Positions 2,347-56,838 of a stretch of DNA of 64,000 nt are shown one piece after another. The translations under genes and the position numbers were made by a program. The stretch spans positions 102,578 through 166,577 of the forward strand of contig MFDN01000015.1 of the NCBI GenBank assembly GCA_001776935.1, in the 5' to 3' direction. Numbering within the stretch: position 1 is the stretch's first letter; every line of letters starts with the position of its first letter. The notes beneath the pieces were generated by a model. That model ran no database searches. It had not been told where the DNA came from and worked only from the letters and a program-made list of their open reading frames with translations. Origin of the DNA: Candidatus Daviesbacteria bacterium RIFCSPLOWO2_01_FULL_39_23 (GTDB lineage Bacteria; Patescibacteriota; Microgenomatia; Daviesbacterales; UBA10151).

Positions 2347-2355
2347 ACATATCCC

Positions 2356-2493
2356 GTCATCCTGAGCAATTAGCGAAGGATCTCTGTTCTACGAAGTAGT
2401 TGCTCTGCAACACTTTTTTCAGACACGTCAATGTTACTTGCATTCGCAAGAGATTCTTCGTACGTTCATGAAACTGAACGTACTCAGAATGAC
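2356..2493. repeat. nested-palindromic intergenic repeat element, copy A. It is bounded by GTCATCCTGAGC and GCTCAGAATGAC and carries the inner pair GAAGGATCTCT and AGAGATTCTTC
   Basis: The terminal 11-mers are inverted repeats with one transition. The inner 11-mers are also inverted repeats. The same architecture recurs at 16271, 19618, 42388 and 45458. Confidence 0.8.
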
Positions 2494-2498
2494 AAATA

Positions 2499-5726: not shown

Positions 5727-7157
5727 TTATGTGACTTCGTTTTTCTCTATTAAAGGGGGATTATTTAAGACAATAATTGTGTCTTCTTCGGGATTCTTTG
5801 TATAAGTTTTTCCAACCTTTTCCATTATTCGTCCAGAAGCGAGAATGATTAAAAAATCGTGAATTGATTTTACTAGTCCTCCGCCTAAAAGCCTGGTTGT
5901 TTCTATATTCTCTTCTATTAATTTTTTGAGTATAGGATTACCTATCTCGTTGATAAACTCAGATTCGATTTTTACAAACACCTGATCTGTTGCTTTTCTG
6001 CCTATTGTTGCGCCTACTGCTGCTATAGCATAAATATAGTTCAAAGCGTTAATTATTTCTTGAGGTATATTAAGATTCAATCTCTGATTTGTATCTCTGT
6101 ATTGGGATTTTAACACTGCTGCTATAGCTGTTATAGTTGCATCAACCTGTTCAACACTGCCCCCTTTGGGGGTTTCTTCCAATTTTTCATAAGAAGAAAA
6201 AGGGCGTAATCCCAGTGTTGATGCTAACCTATTACAGGTTTCTAAACCTGAACTATCCCTTGTTTTTATCGTTTCCTGCACTTGTTGACGGAGTTCCACA
6301 TATAGTTTCATTCTGGGGCCTGGTAACATGCCGACATAGCCAATATGTACAAACTTACTGATATCCTCAAAATCCAGCAATCCTTCACTTAAGCTTCTTA
6401 CCATGTCTACCCCAAATGTCCTATACCGTGTATTTGTAAATTCTGGTTCTTCTGTCTTTGTAAAGGGTTCGCTTAGCAGTTTTTTTAAACCGGCAGCTTG
6501 TTCTTCTTCTGGGGCAGTAATCCCGGGTTTATCAATGATAAGTAGCTTATACGGTGTTCTAGTTCTAAGTTCACGCGCTAAATCGATTTTAATAGCAACA
6601 TCGTTAACGCAAAGAAATTCCAGCGGATAAGGCTTATCGTGTTGAATTTGGCCGGGGAGCCTGAGTAAATTACCTACTATATTTGGTACATACTTTCCCC
6701 ATTCATCCATTGTTTTGAGCCCTGTCCATTTGGCTATACCGACAACCAAGGCGTTGAACTTTACTTTCAGTTCGTTAGGCAAATCATCGCCTACTTCGAT
6801 ACACTTTTGTACGTCTCTTATCATAGTTAATTCTCTTCTTTCTATTGCATCCCAACCGATCACTTTTATATCGGGTACATATGAATTTTCTATCTCCTGT
6901 GCTCTTAATTGTGCATAAGGCAAAATAAGGCTATTTGCCAGAGTGGTTTTGCCTGCACCTCCCGGACCTTCAATAAATAGGGCATGAGCAGTAGATTCTC
7001 CGGTTTGAATATAGCGATCCATGAACCTGCTCATAAAAACATCAAGTCCGGGCATTCCTGATGCATAGTAAATCCTTTCATAAACAGCCATTCTTTGTTC
7101 CAGATTTGTGCGCTCTGGGTGGCTGTCAATATGTTCAAGTTCAGGTTGTCTGCTCAT
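5727..7157 (-). CDS. uncharacterised P-loop protein. The N-terminal domain resembles thymidylate or deoxynucleoside kinases and the C-terminal domain of about 250 aa is unknown
   Basis: Walker A in FIEGPGGAGKTTLANSL, which is close to the TMK/dNK motif FEGxDGAGKTT. A possible Walker B in LLIIDKPG. The remaining 300 aa have no recognisable motif. Confidence 0.5.
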   Translation of the reverse strand: MSRQPELEHIDSHPERTNLEQRMAVYERIYYASGMPGLDVFMSRFMDRYIQTGESTAHALFIEGPGGAGKTTLANSLILPYAQLRAQEIENSYVPDIKVIGWDAIERRELTMIRDVQKCIEVGDDLPNELKVKFNALVVGIAKWTGLKTMDEWGKYVPNIVGNLLRLPGQIQHDKPYPLEFLCVNDVAIKIDLARELRTRTPYKLLIIDKPGITAPEEEQAAGLKKLLSEPFTKTEEPEFTNTRYRTFGVDMVRSLSEGLLDFEDISKFVHIGYVGMLPGPRMKLYVELRQQVQETIKTRDSSGLETCNRLASTLGLRPFSSYEKLEETPKGGSVEQVDATITAIAAVLKSQYRDTNQRLNLNIPQEIINALNYIYAIAAVGATIGRKATDQVFVKIESEFINEIGNPILKKLIEENIETTRLLGGGLVKSIHDFLIILASGRIMEKVGKTYTKNPEEDTIIVLNNPPLIEKNEVT

Positions 7158-15782: not shown

Positions 15783-16255
15783 GAAGTAAAAAAGCACCAA
15801 AAAATCTTTTATCTCCTGATCCAATTTTTGGATCAAGACTGCTTACCCGTTTTATAAATAAAGTAATGGAAGATGGGAAGAAATCCATTGCTCAAAAATT
15901 GGTTTATCAGGCATTGGAAGAAATAAAAGAACAGTCCAAAGAGGAGCCTTTGGTTGTGTTCGAAAAAGCTATTAATAACGTTGCGCCAAAAATGGAAGTT
16001 AGACCCCGCCGCGTTGGGGGAGCTTCATATCAGGTTCCTGTTGAAGTAAGGGGAGACAGAAAAGAAGCCTTAGCGATCAGATGGATTCTTGCAGGCGCCA
16101 GATCCAAGTCTAATAGCCAGTATCATTCGTTTGCTAAAAAGCTGGCGGCAGAACTTATGGATGCAGCCAATAACGCCGGTATTGCCATCAAGAAAAAAGA
16201 AGATGTGCAAAAAGCAGCTGCAGCCAATAGGGCCTTCTCTCACTTCCGCTGGTAA
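15779..16255 (+). CDS. rpsG: 30S ribosomal protein S7
   Basis: Canonical S7 sequence. Overlaps the rpsL stop. Confidence 0.95.
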
Positions 16256-16270
16256 CCATCTCTTTTCCCT

Positions 16271-16371
16271 GTCATCCTGAGGCGATTGGCCGAAGGATCT
16301 CTGAACTTGTTTCAGTTGCATTAATGTAGCTTATATTCATAAGAGATTCTTCAGCTTTGCTTCAGAATGAC
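16271..16371. repeat. nested-palindromic repeat element, copy B, running from GTCATCCTGAGG through GAAGGATCTCTGAACTTGTTTCAG and AGAGATTCTTCAG to CTTCAGAATGAC
   Basis: Same architecture as copies A and E. Lies immediately 3' of rpsG and abuts the GIY-YIG gene. Confidence 0.8.
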
Positions 16372-16373
16372 AA

Positions 16374-16667
16374 TTAGGGGTTAGATAGATCTTTGAATTC
16401 AGGATTAATTGTTTTTATTAAGTCCATTTTCTTTCTTCTTGTCCAGCCTTTAATTTTCTTCTCTGCCGCTATTGCCTCATTAATAGCTGAAAACTCCTGA
16501 TAATAGATTAATTTATTTAACTTATATTTGGATGTAAAAGAAGATATGGCTTTGAATGAGTGCTCAGAAATTCTTCTTTCCAGATTATTTGTTACTCCAA
16601 CATATAAGTTGCTTGATTTGTTAGTCAGGATATATACAAAATAGAAGATGACTAAATTGTATCTCAA
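16374..16667 (-). CDS. GIY-YIG nuclease family protein (UPF0213/YhbQ-like, 97 aa)
   Basis: VYILTNKSSNLYVGVTNNLERRISEH matches GIY-(10)-YIG with catalytic Arg and Glu. Confidence 0.85.
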   Translation of the reverse strand: MRYNLVIFYFVYILTNKSSNLYVGVTNNLERRISEHSFKAISSFTSKYKLNKLIYYQEFSAINEAIAAEKKIKGWTRRKKMDLIKTINPEFKDLSNP

Positions 16668-16674
16668 ATGAATT

Positions 16675-16711
16675 GAGAGATCCTTCGTCGACTCTGTCTC
16701 CTCAGGATGAC
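16675..16711. repeat. half-copy (C) of the palindromic element: AGAGATCCTTCG...CTCAGGATGAC
   Basis: Matches the right-half pattern of copies A, B and E. It forms the right terminal inverted repeat of the GIY-YIG cassette. Confidence 0.7.
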
Positions 16712-17086
16712 AAAAAATAGTTAAAGCATCTTAAATGGCAGCCGGAATGGAAATATCTGTTGAAGTGGTATGGTAATATATAATAACTATGGCTGAAAGA
16801 GATATTGGGAAAGGGCCGTTAGAGAGGATAATAGGGAAAGATCTTGGTGGGTTTGATGTTCCAGATAAATTAGAGTCGGCTTGCAGGATGGATTCATCTG
16901 AGTTGGAAATTTTAGCAGGAGCGCAGCGCCTGCCTGATCCCGCTGATAGTCCGGATTTAACACTAACTTCCAGGCAAATTGCACATAAAAGAACCAGAAA
17001 TGCTGTGCCACCTTTGAGATTAGTGCCATATTGGCGCCATTAATTGATTTGACTTTTAGGATCGAAGAAGTATAATATTGACAGTT

Positions 17087-17114
17087 GCCTCCCGGAGAAT
17101 GAGGGAGGCTTTTT
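17087..17114 (+). terminator. Rho-independent terminator-like hairpin GCCTCCC-ggagaatga-GGGAGGC followed by a T5 run
   Basis: 7-bp GC-rich stem followed by TTTTT. It closes the unexplained 16713-17077 segment. Confidence 0.6.
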
Positions 17115-17122
17115 GGATAAAT

Positions 17123-17350
17123 ATGGATGATAAATTAAGACAAGAAAAATTAAAGATGTGGAAGGCTAATTTAGCTGATCTGGAAGAGCAGTTAAAAATT
17201 ATTGCGCAAAAAAAAGGCGCTGCTGCTGCAGAGGGAGATTTATCTGAAAATGCGGCTTATTCTATGGCTATTGAAGATGCAGAGACAACCAGAGTAAGAA
17301 TTGGGGAAGTGAAAAAGATAATAAGGGATTTAGAGAAAGGAAGCAAATAA
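17123..17350 (+). CDS. stand-alone GreA/GreB N-terminal coiled-coil domain protein (about 75 aa) with no C-terminal FKBP-like domain
   Basis: EGDLSENAAYSMAIEDAETTRVRIGEVKKII matches the Gre-factor coiled-coil tip motif GDLKENAEY. The ORF track's earlier start at 17078 would run through the terminator hairpin. Confidence 0.6.
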   Translation: MDDKLRQEKLKMWKANLADLEEQLKIIAQKKGAAAAEGDLSENAAYSMAIEDAETTRVRIGEVKKIIRDLEKGSK

Positions 17351-17470
17351 TTTTCAAGAATCAATTCTCAATTTTCAATCAAATCTCAATGTGACAATTT
17401 TCAAACATTGAAAATTAAGCAATTGAAAATTCATTGTAAATTGTAAACTGAAAATTGTAAATTTCTTATT

Positions 17471-19609
17471 ATGGCTATACAAAAAACCAAAAGAGATTTT
17501 CCGCTGGATAGGATCCGTAACATTGGTATTATTGCTCACATTGATGCCGGAAAAACCACCACCACTGAGCGGATTTTGTTTTATACCGGAAAAACTTACA
17601 AAATCGGCAATATTGACGAAGGAACTACTGTTACTGACTGGATGGAGCAGGAGCGCGAGCGCGGGATCACCATTGTCTCAGCGGCCATCACAGCTTTTTG
17701 GACTGTTAAAAAAGGTCAATTTGAAGGTGAAGAAATGAGAATCAATTTGATTGATACTCCGGGCCATGTTGATTTTACTGCAGAAGTAGAACGATCTTTA
17801 AGAGTTTTGGATGGGGCAGTAATTGTTTTGGATTCCTCTTCCGGCGTACAGTCTCAAACAGAAACAGTTTGGAGACAAGCGAATAAATATAATGTGCCTT
17901 TAATTGCTTTCTCTAATAAGATGGATGTGGTAGGCGCAGATTTTGTTGCTACTATCCAAAGCGCCCGGGATAGACTTGGGGCCAACGCTATTGCTTACAA
18001 TCTGCCGATAGGCAGGGAGAATGATTTTAAAGGGGTGGTCGATTTATTAACTGAAAAAGCCATAATTTGGGAAGGTGATGAAACAGGTGCTAAGTTTCAT
18101 GAAACAGAGATACCGGCTGATATGATTGATGCGGTTAAGGTTGCCCGGGAAAAATTAGTAGAAGAAATCTCCGGTACTGACGATGTATTGATGGAAAAAT
18201 ATTTAGGCGGAGAGGCAATTACGATTGAAGAATTAAAAATAGCTTTAAGAAAAGCTGTGATTGCCAATAAAATTGTGCCTGTCTTTGCGGGCTCCTCCCT
18301 TAGGAATAAAGGTGTCCAACCAATGTTGGATGCGGTTGTTGAATATTTGCCATCGCCTCAGGATATCTTTACAGTAACCGGTATAAACCCGAAAACAGGT
18401 GAAGCAGAAGAAAGAAAAGGTGAATCCAGCGCGCCTTTGGCTGCTTTGGCTTTTAAAATTCAGGTTGATCCGCATGTAGGAAAATTAACCTATATCAGAG
18501 TTTATTCAGGCACTTTAAAGAGTGGTTCTTATGTTTACAATGTGACCAAGCAACTCAGGGAAAGAGTCGGCAGACTGCTTTTGATGCATGCTAATGACAG
18601 GGAAGAGATTGATGAGGCATTTGCAGGAGAAATAGTGGCAGCAGTAGGTTTGAAGGATACTATTACCGGCAATACACTTTGTGATGAAAGCGCTCCAATT
18701 ATTTTAGAATCTATAAGTTTTCCGGATCCGGTAATTTCCCTGGCAATTGAACCTAAGACAAAGAGCGATCAGGAAAAATTAGGTTATGCGCTGCAAAGAC
18801 TGGCTGAGGAAGATCCGACTTTCAGGGTAAAATCCGATCCTGAAACCGGGCAAACTATTATTGCCGGGATGGGTGAGCTGCAGCTTGAAATTTTGGTTGA
18901 CCGGATGAAAAGAGAGTTTAAGCTGGAAGCGAATGTGGGACAGCCGCAGGTGGCTTACAAAGAAACAATTACTAAAATTGCAGAAGGTGAAGGAAAATAT
19001 ATCAGGCAGACAGGGGGCCGGGGCCAATACGGACATTGTTTACTGCGGATCGAACCTTTGCCGCGCGGAACCGGCAGGGAGTTTGTGTCGGAAATTGTGG
19101 GCGGCGCCATCCCCAGAGAATTTATTTCACCGATTGAAAAAGGTGTTATTGAAAAAGAAGACACAGGTATTTTGGCAGGTTATCCTGTAACTGATATTAA
19201 AGTGGCAGTATATGACGGGTCGTTCCATGATGTTGACTCTTCCGAGGTAGCATTTAAGATTGCTGCATCTTTGGGGCTTTCTGAGGCAGCTAAAAAAGCA
19301 GATATGATTTTGCTAGAACCTATTATGAAAGTGGAAGTTACTACCCCGGATGAGTTTTTGGGAGAAATTATTGGCGATCTTTCTTCAAAAAGAGCGCAAA
19401 TTCTTTCTTCTGAAACCCGCGGAAATGCCAGGGTTGTGGTAGCTTTGGTGCCTTTGGCAGAAATGCACGGTTATGCAACAGCTATAAGGAGCATGTCTCA
19501 AGGAAGAGCCACATATTATATGGAAGCAGATCATTATGAAACCGTTCCTCAAAACGTTACTCAAAAGATTATAGAATCCTCAGGCTTCACAGGACGCGTT
19601 GAGCATTAA
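17471..19609 (+). CDS. fusA: translation elongation factor G
   Basis: G domain [15 protein letters not shown] and DTPGHVDF, with full domain II-V conservation. Confidence 0.97.
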
Positions 19610-19617
19610 TCATCTAT

Positions 19618-19720
19618 CGTCATTGCGGGGAATTTTTATCTTTCTTCTTCCGTCATTCCGAACTTGTTTCGGAATCTCTTTTGGAATACTAGAGATCCTG
19701 AACTAAATTCAGGATGACGG
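19618..19720. repeat. degenerate palindromic element copy D, reading CGTCATTGCGGGG ... CGTCATTCCGAACTTGTTTCGGAATCTC ... AGAGATCCTGAACTAAATTCAGGATGACGG
   Basis: Shares the GTCAT-CCGA, CTGAACTTGTTTC and TCAGGATGAC motifs with copies B and E. Sits between the fusA stop and the second GIY-YIG gene. Confidence 0.65.
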
Positions 19721-19721
19721 T

Positions 19722-20009
19722 TTAAAGTAAGGAATCATGCAGATCGTTAAAGTCCGGATTATTTCTTTTAATCAAGTTAATTTTCCATTCTCTATGCCAA
19801 TTTTTTAGCTGCTTTTCTCTTTTGATAGCTTCAATAATATCTTCATAGATTTCATAGTAAACAAGTTTGTTTACGTTATATTTGGAAGTAAAACCGGAGA
19901 CCACTTTCATTTTGTGTTGATAGATTCGTTTAATTAAGTTATCAGTTACCCCAATATAGAGAACGGTATTTATCTCATTCGTAAGAATGTAAACATAGGA
20001 ATATCTCAT
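19722..20009 (-). CDS. GIY-YIG nuclease family protein (95 aa), second copy
   Basis: YVYILTNEINTVLYIGVTDNLIKRIYQHK. Paralogous to 16374-16667. Confidence 0.85.
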   Translation of the reverse strand: MRYSYVYILTNEINTVLYIGVTDNLIKRIYQHKMKVVSGFTSKYNVNKLVYYEIYEDIIEAIKREKQLKNWHREWKINLIKRNNPDFNDLHDSLL

Positions 20010-20020
20010 ACCTATATTGT

Positions 20021-20062
20021 AGAGATTGCTTCCCCGGGATCAAGTCCGGAGTCGTAATGACG
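20021..20062. repeat. degenerate right-half-like element D': AGAGATTGCTTC ... GGAGTCGTAATGACG
   Basis: Resembles the right half of copy F (AGAGATTGCTACGCTAATCGCTCGCAATGAC). Flanks the second GIY-YIG gene on its 5' side. Confidence 0.5.
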
Positions 20063-20137
20063 TTTTTAGCCTCAGACTTCACGGGCCGTGTTAAACATTG
20101 ACTTGACAATTAATTGTGACTCCTCCATCATAAATGT

Positions 20138-20359
20138 ATGAGCAAAATTTTGGAAATTATTGTTTCGCTAGGATTAATAGCATTTGGTTTAAGTTGTTTT
20201 TTAAATCCTAAATTTTATAAAGAGTTAGTAAAAGCGATAAATGCAGGTAAAGGTCTGAGGACCACAATTACCCCACAAACTACCCAGATAGGAAAAGGGG
20301 TAGGAATCATAGCAATTATTATTGGTACCATTATATTTCTTATTACACTTTCTAACTAG
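20138..20359 (+). CDS. small two-TM membrane protein, hypothetical
   Basis: 73 aa with two hydrophobic helices. No homology recognised. Confidence 0.4.
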   Translation: MSKILEIIVSLGLIAFGLSCFLNPKFYKELVKAINAGKGLRTTITPQTTQIGKGVGIIAIIIGTIIFLITLSN

Positions 20360-22837: not shown

Positions 22838-22860
22838 AGCTTTAAAGTGAGAGTGTTTTA

Positions 22861-22884
22861 AGGGCCCAAAGTGGCCCTTTTTTG
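22861..22884 (+). terminator. Rho-independent terminator after tuf (AGGGCC-caaagt-GGCCCT followed by T6)
   Basis: GC stem plus a TTTTTT run, 24 nt after the tuf stop. Confidence 0.7.
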
Positions 22885-22930
22885 ATGGTTAAGGTATAAT
22901 GCACTTTAACAAGGAAGGAATATTTAAATT

Positions 22931-42369: not shown

Positions 42370-42387
42370 AATTTCTCCGTAATTGCG

Positions 42388-42457
42388 AGGAGTCTTACGA
42401 CGAAGCAATCTTGAGTAATAATTAATAGAGATTGCTACGCTAATCGCTCGCAATGAC
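42388..42457. repeat. palindromic element copy F. The right half is intact (AGAGATTGCTACGCTAATCGCTCGCAATGAC) and the left half is degenerate
   Basis: The right half differs from copy E (AGAGATTCTTCGCTAATCGCTCAGAATGAC) at only 3 positions. Confidence 0.65.
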
Positions 42458-42469
42458 AATTAAAAGATT

Positions 42470-43445: not shown

Positions 43446-43519
43446 CGGGGAGTAGTATAGTGGTAACACGCCGCGCTGGGGGTGCGGCATCGGGAGTTCG
43501 ATTCTCCCCTCCCCGACCA
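43446..43519 (+). tRNA. tRNA-Pro (anticodon GGG), CCA-encoded
   Basis: Acceptor stem CGGGGAG/CTCCCCG. T-arm GGGAG-TTCGATT-CTCCC. Anticodon stem CCGCG/TGCGG with loop CTGGGGG. Discriminator A followed by CCA. The D-stem has one A:C mismatch. Confidence 0.85.
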
Positions 43520-45323: not shown

Positions 45324-45457
45324 AATAGTTCTAGAGAATCAGAAAGAGTGGATTTATCTATGAAAAAATTAATTCTCAAAACCAAGTCAGACTTGGTCAA
45401 AAAATTAATACTCCCTCTAAGCTTCGAGTAATCGGAGTCTTTTCTGATTCTGTTAAT

Positions 45458-45547
45458 GTCATCCTGAACATAGTGAAGGATCTCTGAACTTGTTTCAGAT
45501 GGATCTAGAATAAATCTAGAGATTCTTCGCTAATCGCTCAGAATGAC
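45458..45547. repeat. nested-palindromic repeat element copy E (90 bp), reading GTCATCCTGAAC ... GAAGGATCTCTGAACTTGTTTCAG ... AGAGATTCTTCGCTAATCGCTCAGAATGAC
   Basis: Full copy. It shares 24 consecutive nt (GAAGGATCTCTGAACTTGTTTCAG) with copy B. Confidence 0.8.
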
Positions 45548-45560
45548 CAGAGAGAATATT

Positions 45561-54614: not shown

Positions 54615-55570
54615 CGACAGGTAAAACAGATTTGGCCTTAAACCTTGCTAAAAAATTTAACGGAGAATTATTATCTTGCGACTCAAGGCAGGTTTATCGG
54701 GGGCTGGATATTGGGACTGGAAAATATCCAAATTTAAATATCAAATATCAAATATCAAATATCAAAAAGAGGAAAGCGCATTGGGAAATAGAGGGGGTTA
54801 AAATCTCGATGTATGATGTGGCTGATCCAAAAAAACAATATACGGTTTATGATTTCATAAAAGACGCAACCCCAATCATTGATGATATTTTAAAAAGAGG
54901 AAAACTTCCTATTATAGTAGGGGGTACTGGGTTGTACTTAAAAGCTTTACTTGAGGGTATTCCTAATTTGGGAATCCCGGTTTCGGAGAAATTAAGGATG
55001 CAGCTGCAAAAACTTTCTAAAGATGAGCTGCAGGGAAAATTACAACAAATAGCTCCTGATAGATGGGAGCGTATGAATTACTCGGACAGACAAAACCCCA
55101 GAAGGTTAATCAGGGCAATAGAGATTGTCATTCAGCTCACTGTAAACAAGCTCAGGACTCAGGATGACAAAGGTAGAAGTCAAAATGACACTTACGTTTT
55201 AAAAATCGGATTAACTGCACCGCGCGATATTTTATATCAAAGAATCGATAAGCGGGTTATCATCAGGGTTAATCAGGGGATGATTGATGAAGCACAGCAG
55301 TTACATAAGAGGGGCCTGAGTTTAAAAAGAATGAGACAATTGGGGCTTGAGTATGGAGTTTTAGCTGATTTTCTGGAGGGCAAAATTAAAAGTAAGGAGG
55401 AATTGATTAAAGTATTGCAGGGCAAAATTCATGGTTTTGCCAGAAGACAGCTTACTTGGTTTAAGAAAGAGAAAAATGTATCTTGGGTTGATACAGAAGG
55501 TAGAAATTATTTCCAAAAAGTAGAGAATTTGATTTGTAAATGGTATGATAATCCTATAAATGTCGCATAA
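54566..55570 (+). CDS. miaA: tRNA dimethylallyltransferase with a lineage-specific insert that contains a perfect 7-bp x4 tandem repeat
   Basis: P-loop GPTSTGKTDLA and SCDSRQVYRGLDIGTGK, with a conserved C-terminal half. An insert NLNIKYQISNIKKRKAHWEIEGVKIS is present. Confidence 0.9.
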   Translation: MTLINNTRLVVILGPTSTGKTDLALNLAKKFNGELLSCDSRQVYRGLDIGTGKYPNLNIKYQISNIKKRKAHWEIEGVKISMYDVADPKKQYTVYDFIKDATPIIDDILKRGKLPIIVGGTGLYLKALLEGIPNLGIPVSEKLRMQLQKLSKDELQGKLQQIAPDRWERMNYSDRQNPRRLIRAIEIVIQLTVNKLRTQDDKGRSQNDTYVLKIGLTAPRDILYQRIDKRVIIRVNQGMIDEAQQLHKRGLSLKRMRQLGLEYGVLADFLEGKIKSKEELIKVLQGKIHGFARRQLTWFKKEKNVSWVDTEGRNYFQKVENLICKWYDNPINVA

Positions 55571-56540: not shown

Positions 56541-56838
56541 GGGGCCTGGGAAGAAGGATAATCGGTCCGCCTTTGGCGGACAGGAAAGTCCAGACAGCAA
56601 AAAGCAGGGTGATCTGCGTAAGCAGGTAGCCGTAAGGCCTAGTTAGAGTAACAGAAACGATCTGGGTGACGCCAGCTGAAACGACCAAGTGACTGGGTAT
56701 CCCGCCTTAAGGCGGGAGGACAATCCTCCCCGCTGCAATCCTAGAATCAACAGAGCCGCTTGCTCAATTGTTGTAATCAGGAGCATTAGATAAATGATTA
56801 TCTTGAAACAGAATCTGGCTTACTATCTTCCTAGGCAA
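56541..56838 (+). ncRNA. rnpB: RNase P RNA, bacterial type A, reduced in size (about 300 nt)
   Basis: P4 5' strand AGGAAAGUCCAGAC and P4 3' strand ACAGAAUCUGGCUUAC. P2 is GAUAAUC/GAUUAUC. P3 hairpin GUCCGCC-uuu-GGCGGAC. P1 is GCCUGGGAAGA/UCUUCCUAGGC. P5 region GCAGGGUG. A TATAAT lies at 56531-56536. Confidence 0.75.

Follow-up and report, generated by a model that had tools for sequence, protein, structure and literature searches.

A predicted Ssn nuclease gene and its flanking Ssn-related motifs in the str operon of a Candidatus Daviesbacteria genome

Introduction

Is the pairing of a small GIY-YIG nuclease gene with the palindromic repeats on either side of it more than coincidence, and if so, what kind of system do they form? 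The question is raised by a locus between fusA and gpsA in a 64,000-nucleotide stretch of DNA, hereafter the window, from Candidatus Daviesbacteria bacterium RIFCSPLOWO2_01_FULL_39_23 (contig MFDN01000015.1, positions 102,578 to 166,577). The host is a low-GC (39%) bacterium of the Microgenomates within the Candidate Phyla Radiation (CPR), and its relatives with EF-G identities of 85-95% are nearly all named Candidatus Daviesbacteria. The window carries a str operon made of rpoC, rpsL, rpsG, a small GreA_N-like gene, fusA, gpsA, tuf and rpsJ. This operon is broken by two short minus-strand open reading frames (ORFs), one after rpsG (16374-16667, 97 aa) and one after fusA (19722-20009, 95 aa). 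We refer to the rpsG-side gene with its flanking repeats as unit 1 and to the fusA-side gene with its flanking repeats as unit 2.

A sequence-only reading of this DNA had described the 95-aa GIY-YIG gene as bracketed by palindromic elements and had held that the association is not coincidental. Here we report that the locus is very probably an Ssn/SRM module, in which the palindromes would be the cognate Ssn-related motifs (SRMs) of the encoded nuclease. Ssn nucleases and SRMs, the latter called NTS in Neisseria, were defined and biochemically tested by Chenal et al. 2025 (Nat Commun 16:2388; PMC11893778). The link between gene and repeat is therefore real but already published; the window places it in a new host, with a new repeat variant and in a defined modular arrangement.

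Two paralogous proteins, probable members of the Ssn family

Each of the two proteins is largely spanned by a single match to Pfam GIY-YIG, which covers residues 4-78 of the 95-aa protein and residues 9-81 of the 97-aa protein; no second domain was found above the Pfam cut-off in either. For comparison with SsnA, the gonococcal ssnA ortholog was used as the reference in place of meningococcal SsnA, and was taken from a chromosome filed in a plasmid collection. This ortholog encodes 94 amino acids, carries Y6, Y17 and E64 as in PMC11893778, and has an NTS, CCGTCATTCCCGCTCAGGCGGGAATCC, directly 3′ of its stop codon. A tblastn search with the fusA-side protein recovered the N. gonorrhoeae ortholog with 52.9% identity (E 5e-20), and pairwise BLASTP against it gave 53% identity (E 1e-33) for the fusA-side protein and 38% identity (E 4e-20) for the rpsG-side protein. 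With the gonococcal ortholog as reference, the tblastn score falls within the bound by which homologs are recognized in PMC11893778 (tblastn E < 1e-10 to N. meningitidis SsnA).

Mutation of Y6, Y17 or E64 abolishes cleavage by SsnA (PMC11893778). These three residues, together with R27 and H31 (SsnA numbering), are invariant in our family alignment, where Y7, Y18 and E65 of the 95-aa window protein align with Y6, Y17 and E64. The family comprises 4542 representatives (50% identity) at E<=1e-10, and was delimited in PMC11893778 by CDD cd10448 (GIY-YIG_unchar_3). NCBIfam holds no model specific to the Ssn family, and a sequence search of the PDB gave no meaningful match. A protein identical to the 95-aa one has been recorded from an uncultured groundwater bacterium (ACD_38C00165G0019). 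Many family representatives (P0242-P0391) are annotated with 30-70 more residues at the N-terminus than the ~95-aa core; our guess is that gene callers start these inside or upstream of the 5′ repeat.

The two window proteins are 51% identical to each other and, judged by this distance, are old paralogs rather than recent copies.

Oriented hairpin repeats in the window

SsnA, a 94-aa single-domain GIY-YIG protein, binds its repeats and cuts only single-stranded DNA (ssDNA), in one orientation and at a point a few nucleotides 5′ of them; the repeat features that matter most for binding are the tag, the AT-initiated stem and the 3′ C (PMC11893778). The window repeats are oriented in a corresponding manner, with (C/T)GTC first, a hairpin with an AT-initiated stem next and CTC(T) last. 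The sequences quoted by the sequence-only reading are all present, namely CGTCATTCCGAACTTGTTTCGGAATCTC at 19651-19678, AGAGATCCTGAACTAAATTCAGGATGACGG at 19691-19720 and AGAGATTGCTTC...GTCGTAATGACG at 20021-20062, and both sides of the 95-aa gene indeed carry GTC, an AT-initiated hairpin and CTC. The hairpins at 19651-19679 and 19691-19720 together make up a dimer. Unit 2 had also been called a more decayed version of unit 1. This is accurate for its outer pair, in which a G-to-A change affects the stem of the copy at 20022-20061 and the copy at 19618 lacks its 3′ half, but not for its inner two hairpins, which are the best formed in the window.

About 10 well-formed copies occur in the 64 kb, or 12-13 when degenerate ones are counted. 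Well-formed copies are located at 2356, 16271, 19652 and 45458 on the plus strand and at 2493, 16371, 16711, 19718, 20061, 42457 and 45547 on the minus strand, with degenerate copies at 19618 and 42382. A strict hairpin scan (>=7 pairs) recovered two perfect copies only, and the definition was then relaxed to a 5-bp closing stem. The resulting structural definition (GTC, a 5-bp stem starting AT, the closing stem, C) was written after the window repeats had been seen; it yields 12 matches in the window versus 0.96 (maximum 5) in 200 dinucleotide shuffles, and also picks up Neisseria NTS copies. Ten of the 12 matches share the consensus YGTCAT-YCTGA...GAAG-RATCTC, and the window consensus in full reads YGTCAT-YCTGA-[inner hairpin]-GAAG-RATCTCT.

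When folded as ssDNA, the copies at 19652 and 19718 form a perfect 8-bp stem with a 5-nt loop, and they are the only copies with this simple structure. In most others a 5-bp stem is followed by a GA/GA internal loop and then by an inner stem. Every copy has the tag and the AT start; the closing stems in the window read ATCCT, ATTCT or ATTGC, the inner hairpin is variable, and the tail is CTCT. All well-formed copies end in CTC(T) rather than CCA, and CCA or CTA is found in some homolog loci. Base pairing is also evident from covariation. When copies were defined by sequence alone, 29 of the resulting 34 are fully paired and seven stem types are represented. The three variable stem positions are paired in 89 of 102 cases, a total that none of 5000 partner shuffles reached, versus 47 after shuffling.

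The published SRM pattern, HGTCWYN(0-2)YYVSBRHN(0-5)WNVSBRGN(0-2)RNCYNB, has no match in the window, while a canonical NTS control was found with it. Because this pattern matches none of them, the window repeats are a divergent SRM variant. The repeats also have no match in Rfam, either in the whole window at gathering thresholds or in 16200-20200 at E<=10. A repeat-like string inside miaA (55121-55168) was rejected as a real copy, since it has no closing stem, and is judged a chance match; we take it that the string adds no residues relative to E. coli MiaA.

Gene and repeat remain associated beyond the window

Both ssn genes of the window have the element on both sides, and so do all five distinct homolog loci fetched from other genomes. 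Homologs of 72-75% identity are located after topA (loci L002 and L092), between sufC and pflB (L088) and beside a YCII gene (L091). The structural definition finds 11 matches in 10.3 kb of L002, 6 in 6.3 kb of L088, 5 in 4.0 kb of L091 and 4 in 4.2 kb of L092; the 80 control loci fetched with EF-G, which include no ssn gene, contain 27 matches in 687 kb.

An independent measure comes from 40 ssn loci of IMG/VR, which played no part in designing the repeat definition. Within 200 nt of the gene, these loci hold 3.2 repeats per kb versus 0.16 per kb farther away, a 20-fold difference in density, and the gene is flanked on both sides in 11 of the 40. The usual layout, which is maintained across phyla, places the start of an SRM(+) 50-70 nt ahead of the ATG and an SRM(-) 24-37 nt after the stop codon. 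With both window genes and five fetched homolog loci flanked, and with this density near the gene, there is good ground for the view that GIY-YIG genes and palindromes are linked by more than coincidence. The proposed alignment of the two GIY-YIG units likewise reveals a common repeat layout around their diverged proteins. Paralogs without the element would not refute the link, because only 71% of SsnA homologs have a recognizable SRM nearby, and 42% have SRMs on both sides (PMC11893778).

Two observations on individual repeat copies were made in these loci. At L002:4960-5004 and L092:2829-2927 SRM copies have been inserted into the topA reading frame, which continues across them, so that the C-terminal tail is encoded by the repeat, as in ..VIASEAKQSSE-stop. 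Canonical Neisseria-like NTS copies (GTCATTCCCGCGCAGGCGGGAATCCA) are present near fusA in two metagenome-assembled genomes of the control set, at L008:833, 6197 and 8104 and at L014:6131; the genomes with such copies are those of uncultured gammaproteobacterial and Patescibacteria members.

A four-repeat module after fusA and a diverged one after rpsG

When aligned in gene orientation, the window units and their homologs have a common order: SRM(+), a spacer of ~15-25 nt with a −10 box, ssn, SRM(+), SRM(-) and an outer SRM(-). In terms of repeat type this reads outer ATTGCG, box, ssn, ATCCTGAA-type SRM(+), ATTCCGAA-type SRM(-) and an outer ...CGCAATGACG repeat. The TAAAAT/TACAAT box, ~7 nt before the ATG, is conserved at the same place in the homolog units. 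The outer CGTCAT tags mark both limits of the similarity between units from unrelated contexts, and the four-repeat module recurs around the homologs beside topA, sufC/pflB and the YCII gene.

Close relatives provide the empty counterpart. Loci L097, L095 and L094, whose EF-G proteins are 93-94% identical to that of the window, have compact rpsG-greA_N-fusA-gpsA/tuf operons without either module. In L097 only 24 nt separate rpsG from greA_N and 1 nt separates fusA from gpsA. Judged against these relatives, the module has been inserted directly behind the fusA stop codon, and a second, diverged module is inserted just after rpsG, with the native rpsG-greA_N spacer resuming in the window at about 17047. 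Each insertion is ~800 nt long and consists of the module plus ~340 nt of orphan DNA. Apart from a single useful relative, whose synteny differs, a scan of a genome collection with EF-G yielded mainly distant phyla; a metagenome scan with GpsA returned an identical fragment only, and locus L098 is the same locus with one single-nucleotide difference.

The orphan DNA carries ORFs beside the modules that point away from ssn, at 16789-17043 (84 aa) and 20138-20359 (73 aa). Pfam has no match to the 84-aa ORF. For the 73-aa ORF, which lies downstream of unit 2, a search of 5.8 billion proteins found no homolog but itself and so yielded no intermediate empty site.

A second copy of the fusA 3′ end follows unit 2 on its far side. 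Positions 20070-20099 match 19578-19607 at 24 of 30 nt (80%), a score reached in none of 2000 shuffles, and the duplicate spans the last ten codons of the gene. The last codons of the left copy read ..SGFTGRVEH, and the right copy reads SDFTGRVKH followed by an in-frame TGA. In all 120 of the closest EF-G relatives the C-terminus agrees with the left copy, and the right copy is therefore regarded as the orphan. The orphan is present in every strain variant fetched. No significant flank duplication of this kind was found for unit 1 or for the three gene-less dimers; a duplication of the rpsG 3′ end after unit 1, suspected by eye, is not significant (p about 0.35). Possible origins of the fusA duplicate include a Campbell-type single crossover of a circle carrying a fusA end, homology-facilitated illegitimate recombination, and repair of a break at a hairpin.

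Because the module recurs in unrelated contexts, is missing from close relatives and, in unit 2, is accompanied by a flank duplication, the modules are probably discrete inserted, mobile units. The gene-less dimers are polymorphic as well: L097 has an SRM dimer in its tuf-rpsJ spacer (6960-7035), where the window has a GC-rich stem and T-run at 22838-22900, an intrinsic terminator. Coordinates of the features are collected in Table 1.

Table 1. Repeats, ssn genes and associated features of the window
Feature	Position	Strand	Description
ssn gene, unit 2	19722..20009	−	95-aa single-domain GIY-YIG nuclease, Ssn family (predicted); Pfam GIY-YIG E 2.9e-18
Paralogous ssn gene, unit 1	16374..16667	−	97 aa; Pfam GIY-YIG E 8e-18
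Truncated outer repeat SRM-a′	19618..19645	+	CGTCATTGCGGGG..., 3′ half of hairpin lost; inverted partner of 20021-20062
SRM hairpin	19651..19679	+	CGTC-ATTCCGAA-CTTGT-TTCGGAAT-CTC; perfect 8-bp stem, z −3.6; terminator-like, directly after fusA
SRM hairpin	19691..19720	−	CGTC-ATCCTGAA-TTTAG-TTCAGGAT-CTC; perfect 8-bp stem, z −4.4; directly after ssn stop codon
Upstream outer repeat SRM-a	20021..20062	−	CGTCATTACG...GAAGCAATCTC on minus strand; G-to-A change weakens stem
Promoter-like TTGATC-16-TACAAT	20016..20043	−	Consensus scan; overlaps upstream repeat of unit 2; −10 box ~7 nt before ATG
fusA functional 3′ end, left copy of direct repeat	19578..19609	+	C-terminus matches consensus of 120 closest Daviesbacteria EF-G relatives
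Orphan duplicate of fusA 3′ end	20070..20101	+	In frame ..SDFTGRVKH-stop; far side of unit 2
Unit 1 outer SRM	16270..16302	+	TGTCATCCTGAGGCGATTGGCCGAAGGATCTC
Unit 1 SRM	16342..16372	−	Directly after stop codon of paralogous ssn
Unit 1 SRM	16676..16712	−	Upstream of paralogous ssn
Gene-less SRM dimer	2355..2494		Spacer between 209-aa ORF and next gene
Gene-less SRM dimer, ATTGCG type	42381..42458		Left half GTAAT in place of GTCAT
Gene-less SRM dimer	45457..45548		Upstream of 452-aa ORF; GATCTCTGAACTTGTTTCAG in common with unit 1

Possible mechanism and alternative explanations

By analogy with the Neisseria and Wolbachia enzymes, the window proteins would bind the hairpin of single-stranded DNA in one orientation only and would cut the bound strand a few nucleotides 5′ of the CGTC tag, leaving duplex DNA and RNA alone. 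Such activity could serve to restrict or trim incoming or exposed ssDNA that bears the repeats, to propagate or maintain the module itself, or both.

Several points weigh against assigning the locus to the Ssn/SRM system. The window repeats escape the published degenerate pattern altogether and qualify under the looser structural definition only. Even that definition finds no hairpin in 22 of the 40 IMG/VR homolog loci. The activity expected of a CPR Ssn protein is drawn from characterized homologs, and the role proposed in Neisseria, modulation of natural transformation, concerns that genus (PMC11893778). The catalytic residues, the flanking hairpins and the density of repeats near the gene nevertheless make an Ssn/SRM module the best account of the locus.

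A related proposal, which overlaps with the Ssn/SRM assignment, is that SRM-ssn-SRM is an autonomous element resembling an insertion sequence (IS), with Ssn acting as a “transposase” that cuts outside terminal inverted repeats and with the dimers comparable to miniature inverted-repeat transposable elements (MITEs). We regard this as a real possibility, to which we would give rather less than even credence. The outermost repeats are inverted, as terminal inverted repeats are, although one of them (right-hand in unit 2, in gene orientation) is truncated. The Neisseria enzyme cuts ~3 nt outside the CGTCAT tag (PMC11893778), and it is at the outer tags that similarity between contexts stops; with outer repeats inverted, cuts of this kind would fall just outside each end of the module and on opposite strands, as an IS-like element needs. 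Sites orthologous to those of both modules are empty in L094, L095 and L097, the tuf-rpsJ spacer holds a gene-less dimer in L097 and an ordinary terminator in the window, and the layout typical across phyla (SRM(+) at −50 to −70, SRM(-) at +24 to +37) fits the same idea, which was raised by the authors of PMC11893778 as a mobile-element origin of NTS-ssnA-NTS.

Several observations run counter to an IS-like element. Near-identical copies are absent from the window, where the only two ssn genes in 64 kb have diverged to 51% identity, and there is no consistent target-site duplication, with none at unit 1 or the three dimers and an atypical 30-nt one at unit 2. GIY-YIG enzymes are hydrolytic, and strand-transfer or ligation activity is not known for them. 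Moreover, the comparisons of filled and empty sites are between species rather than strains, such that loss and gain are inseparable for each event, and both insertions include, next to the module, ~340 nt of DNA unrelated to it.

A more specific version, which we put forward tentatively and consider somewhat unlikely, is that the module is a discrete mobile element built on a GIY-YIG ssDNA nuclease and landing immediately downstream of essential genes, behind their stop codons. The dimers would then be miniature derivatives, and the fusA duplicate would be a fossil of integration, left for example by Campbell-type crossover of an excised circle with the fusA end of a previous host. If true, a mobile element dependent on a GIY-YIG single-strand nuclease would be of a kind not yet demonstrated.

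It is highly improbable that the palindromes are ordinary terminators resembling repetitive extragenic palindromes (REPs), or mRNA-stabilizing hairpins, whose adjacency to GIY-YIG genes is incidental. Such a function would suit the facts that all copies are intergenic, that several come right after stop codons, that 19655-19675 scores terminator-like for fusA, and that the L097 dimer stands in place of the window's intrinsic terminator. However, it leaves unexplained the 20-fold enrichment beside ssn genes in 40 independent loci and the fixed distance and orientation of the upstream repeat relative to the start codon across phyla. Specific repeat binding has been demonstrated for four Ssn homologs (PMC11893778), and most copies have no T-run and few G-C pairs. 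The repeats may act in termination as a secondary effect.

Least probable of all, by a narrow margin, is that the gene encodes a free-standing homing endonuclease with a GIY-YIG domain, like I-TevI or the phage Seg proteins, aimed at conserved str-operon genes and lying among unrelated REP-type terminators: both copies directly follow highly conserved genes, both proteins have weak sub-threshold matches to the group I intron endonuclease model TIGR01453 (E 0.0027 fusA-side and 1.2e-4 rpsG-side; 18-22 bits, cut-off 56), and the duplicated fusA end superficially resembles a co-converted flank, but the 95-aa protein is a nuclease domain without the linker or DNA-binding domain that homing GIY-YIG enzymes need, it is 53% identical to a protein that does not cut duplex DNA, its context is chromosomal and intergenic, its closest homologs sit in unrelated contexts rather than at fusA or rpsG, and the repeats travel with the gene.

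Neighboring genes and related loci

A stand-alone protein corresponding to the N-terminal coiled coil of GreA/GreB (74-90 aa) is encoded directly upstream of fusA, at 17099-17350 in the window, and its position is kept in all Daviesbacteria relatives examined (about 2275-2500 in L094, L095 and L097). In L094 the rpsG-greA_N spacer (198-2142) holds a Gp49-family (PF05973) gene, a helix-turn-helix (HTH) gene and three small ORFs in place of an ssn module; we read the Gp49/HTH pair as a toxin-antitoxin system of the HigB/HigA type. The spacer looks like a hotspot of gene insertion.

Metagenomic contig L086 (1-1381, compared with window positions 16138-17518) has 99.5% identity to the window from 48 nt inside fusA onward. 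Upstream of that point it carries a wholly different rpsL-rpsG-133-aa-ORF segment without unit 1, which reflects either a recombination breakpoint in the 5′ end of fusA or a chimeric assembly. The only Rfam matches in the window are RNase P RNA (bacterial type A, 112.7 bits; 56546-56838) and one tRNA (43446-43516).

Significance

These findings extend the Ssn/SRM system to the CPR and add a repeat variant that is invisible to the published pattern. Since that pattern misses a whole variant, the reported 71% association is probably an underestimate. Also new are a defined four-repeat module that occurs in several contexts and is missing from close relatives, and one flank duplication. The small genomes of these bacteria allow clean comparisons, here of compact str operons in close relatives with an operon that holds two modules, and such comparisons bear on whether NTS-ssnA-NTS is, or once was, mobile, a question left by PMC11893778. 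Each new pair of Ssn protein and repeat is also a candidate reagent for cutting ssDNA at specific sequences.

Comparison with known systems

The closest counterpart is SsnA with NTS (PMC11893778). In both cases a single-domain GIY-YIG protein of ~94 aa, with 53% identity between the two and the same catalytic Tyr, Tyr and Glu, is encoded by a gene flanked on both sides by oriented hairpins with CGTC, an AT-initiated stem and C, and gene-less copies are found in intergenic regions. The window differs from published Ssn/SRM systems in its CPR host, neither CPR nor Patescibacteria being mentioned in the searched text of PMC11893778. It also differs in its stem sequences, GA/GA internal loops, CTCT tail and modest copy number.

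The SRMs that Ssn proteins bind had earlier been catalogued as “CGTC-tagged REPs” (Di Nocera et al. 2013; PMC3733652), and the window repeats resemble these, which have a CGTC tag, 8-9 bp stems starting AT and 4-5 nt loops, mostly form inverted dimers, include Neisseria dRS3 and Rickettsia RPE-4/6, and “apparently lack a dedicated transposase”. Common to both are the CGTC/TGTC tag, AT stems, inverted dimers and intergenic location after coding regions, and the window copies at 19652 and 19718 have the 8-bp stem and 5-nt loop. In contrast, most window copies have a 5-bp closing stem with an internal loop, the tail is CTC(T) rather than CCA, and an ssn nuclease accompanies the repeats here whereas no enzyme partner was reported in PMC3733652.

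Two further systems share features of organization. GIY-YIG homing endonucleases such as I-TevI and the phage Seg proteins have the same catalytic fold and a position beside conserved genes, but, unlike the window ssn proteins, they possess a separate DNA-binding domain, cut duplex DNA and have no tie to hairpin repeats. RAYT (TnpA-REP) proteins with REP/BIME sequences, and IS200/IS605 TnpA, present the same architecture of a small nuclease gene bracketed by its own ssDNA-recognized hairpins, with many gene-less copies elsewhere. They belong to the HUH/Y1 transposases, which work through covalent intermediates and rejoin the DNA, whereas Ssn has the unrelated, hydrolytic GIY-YIG fold.

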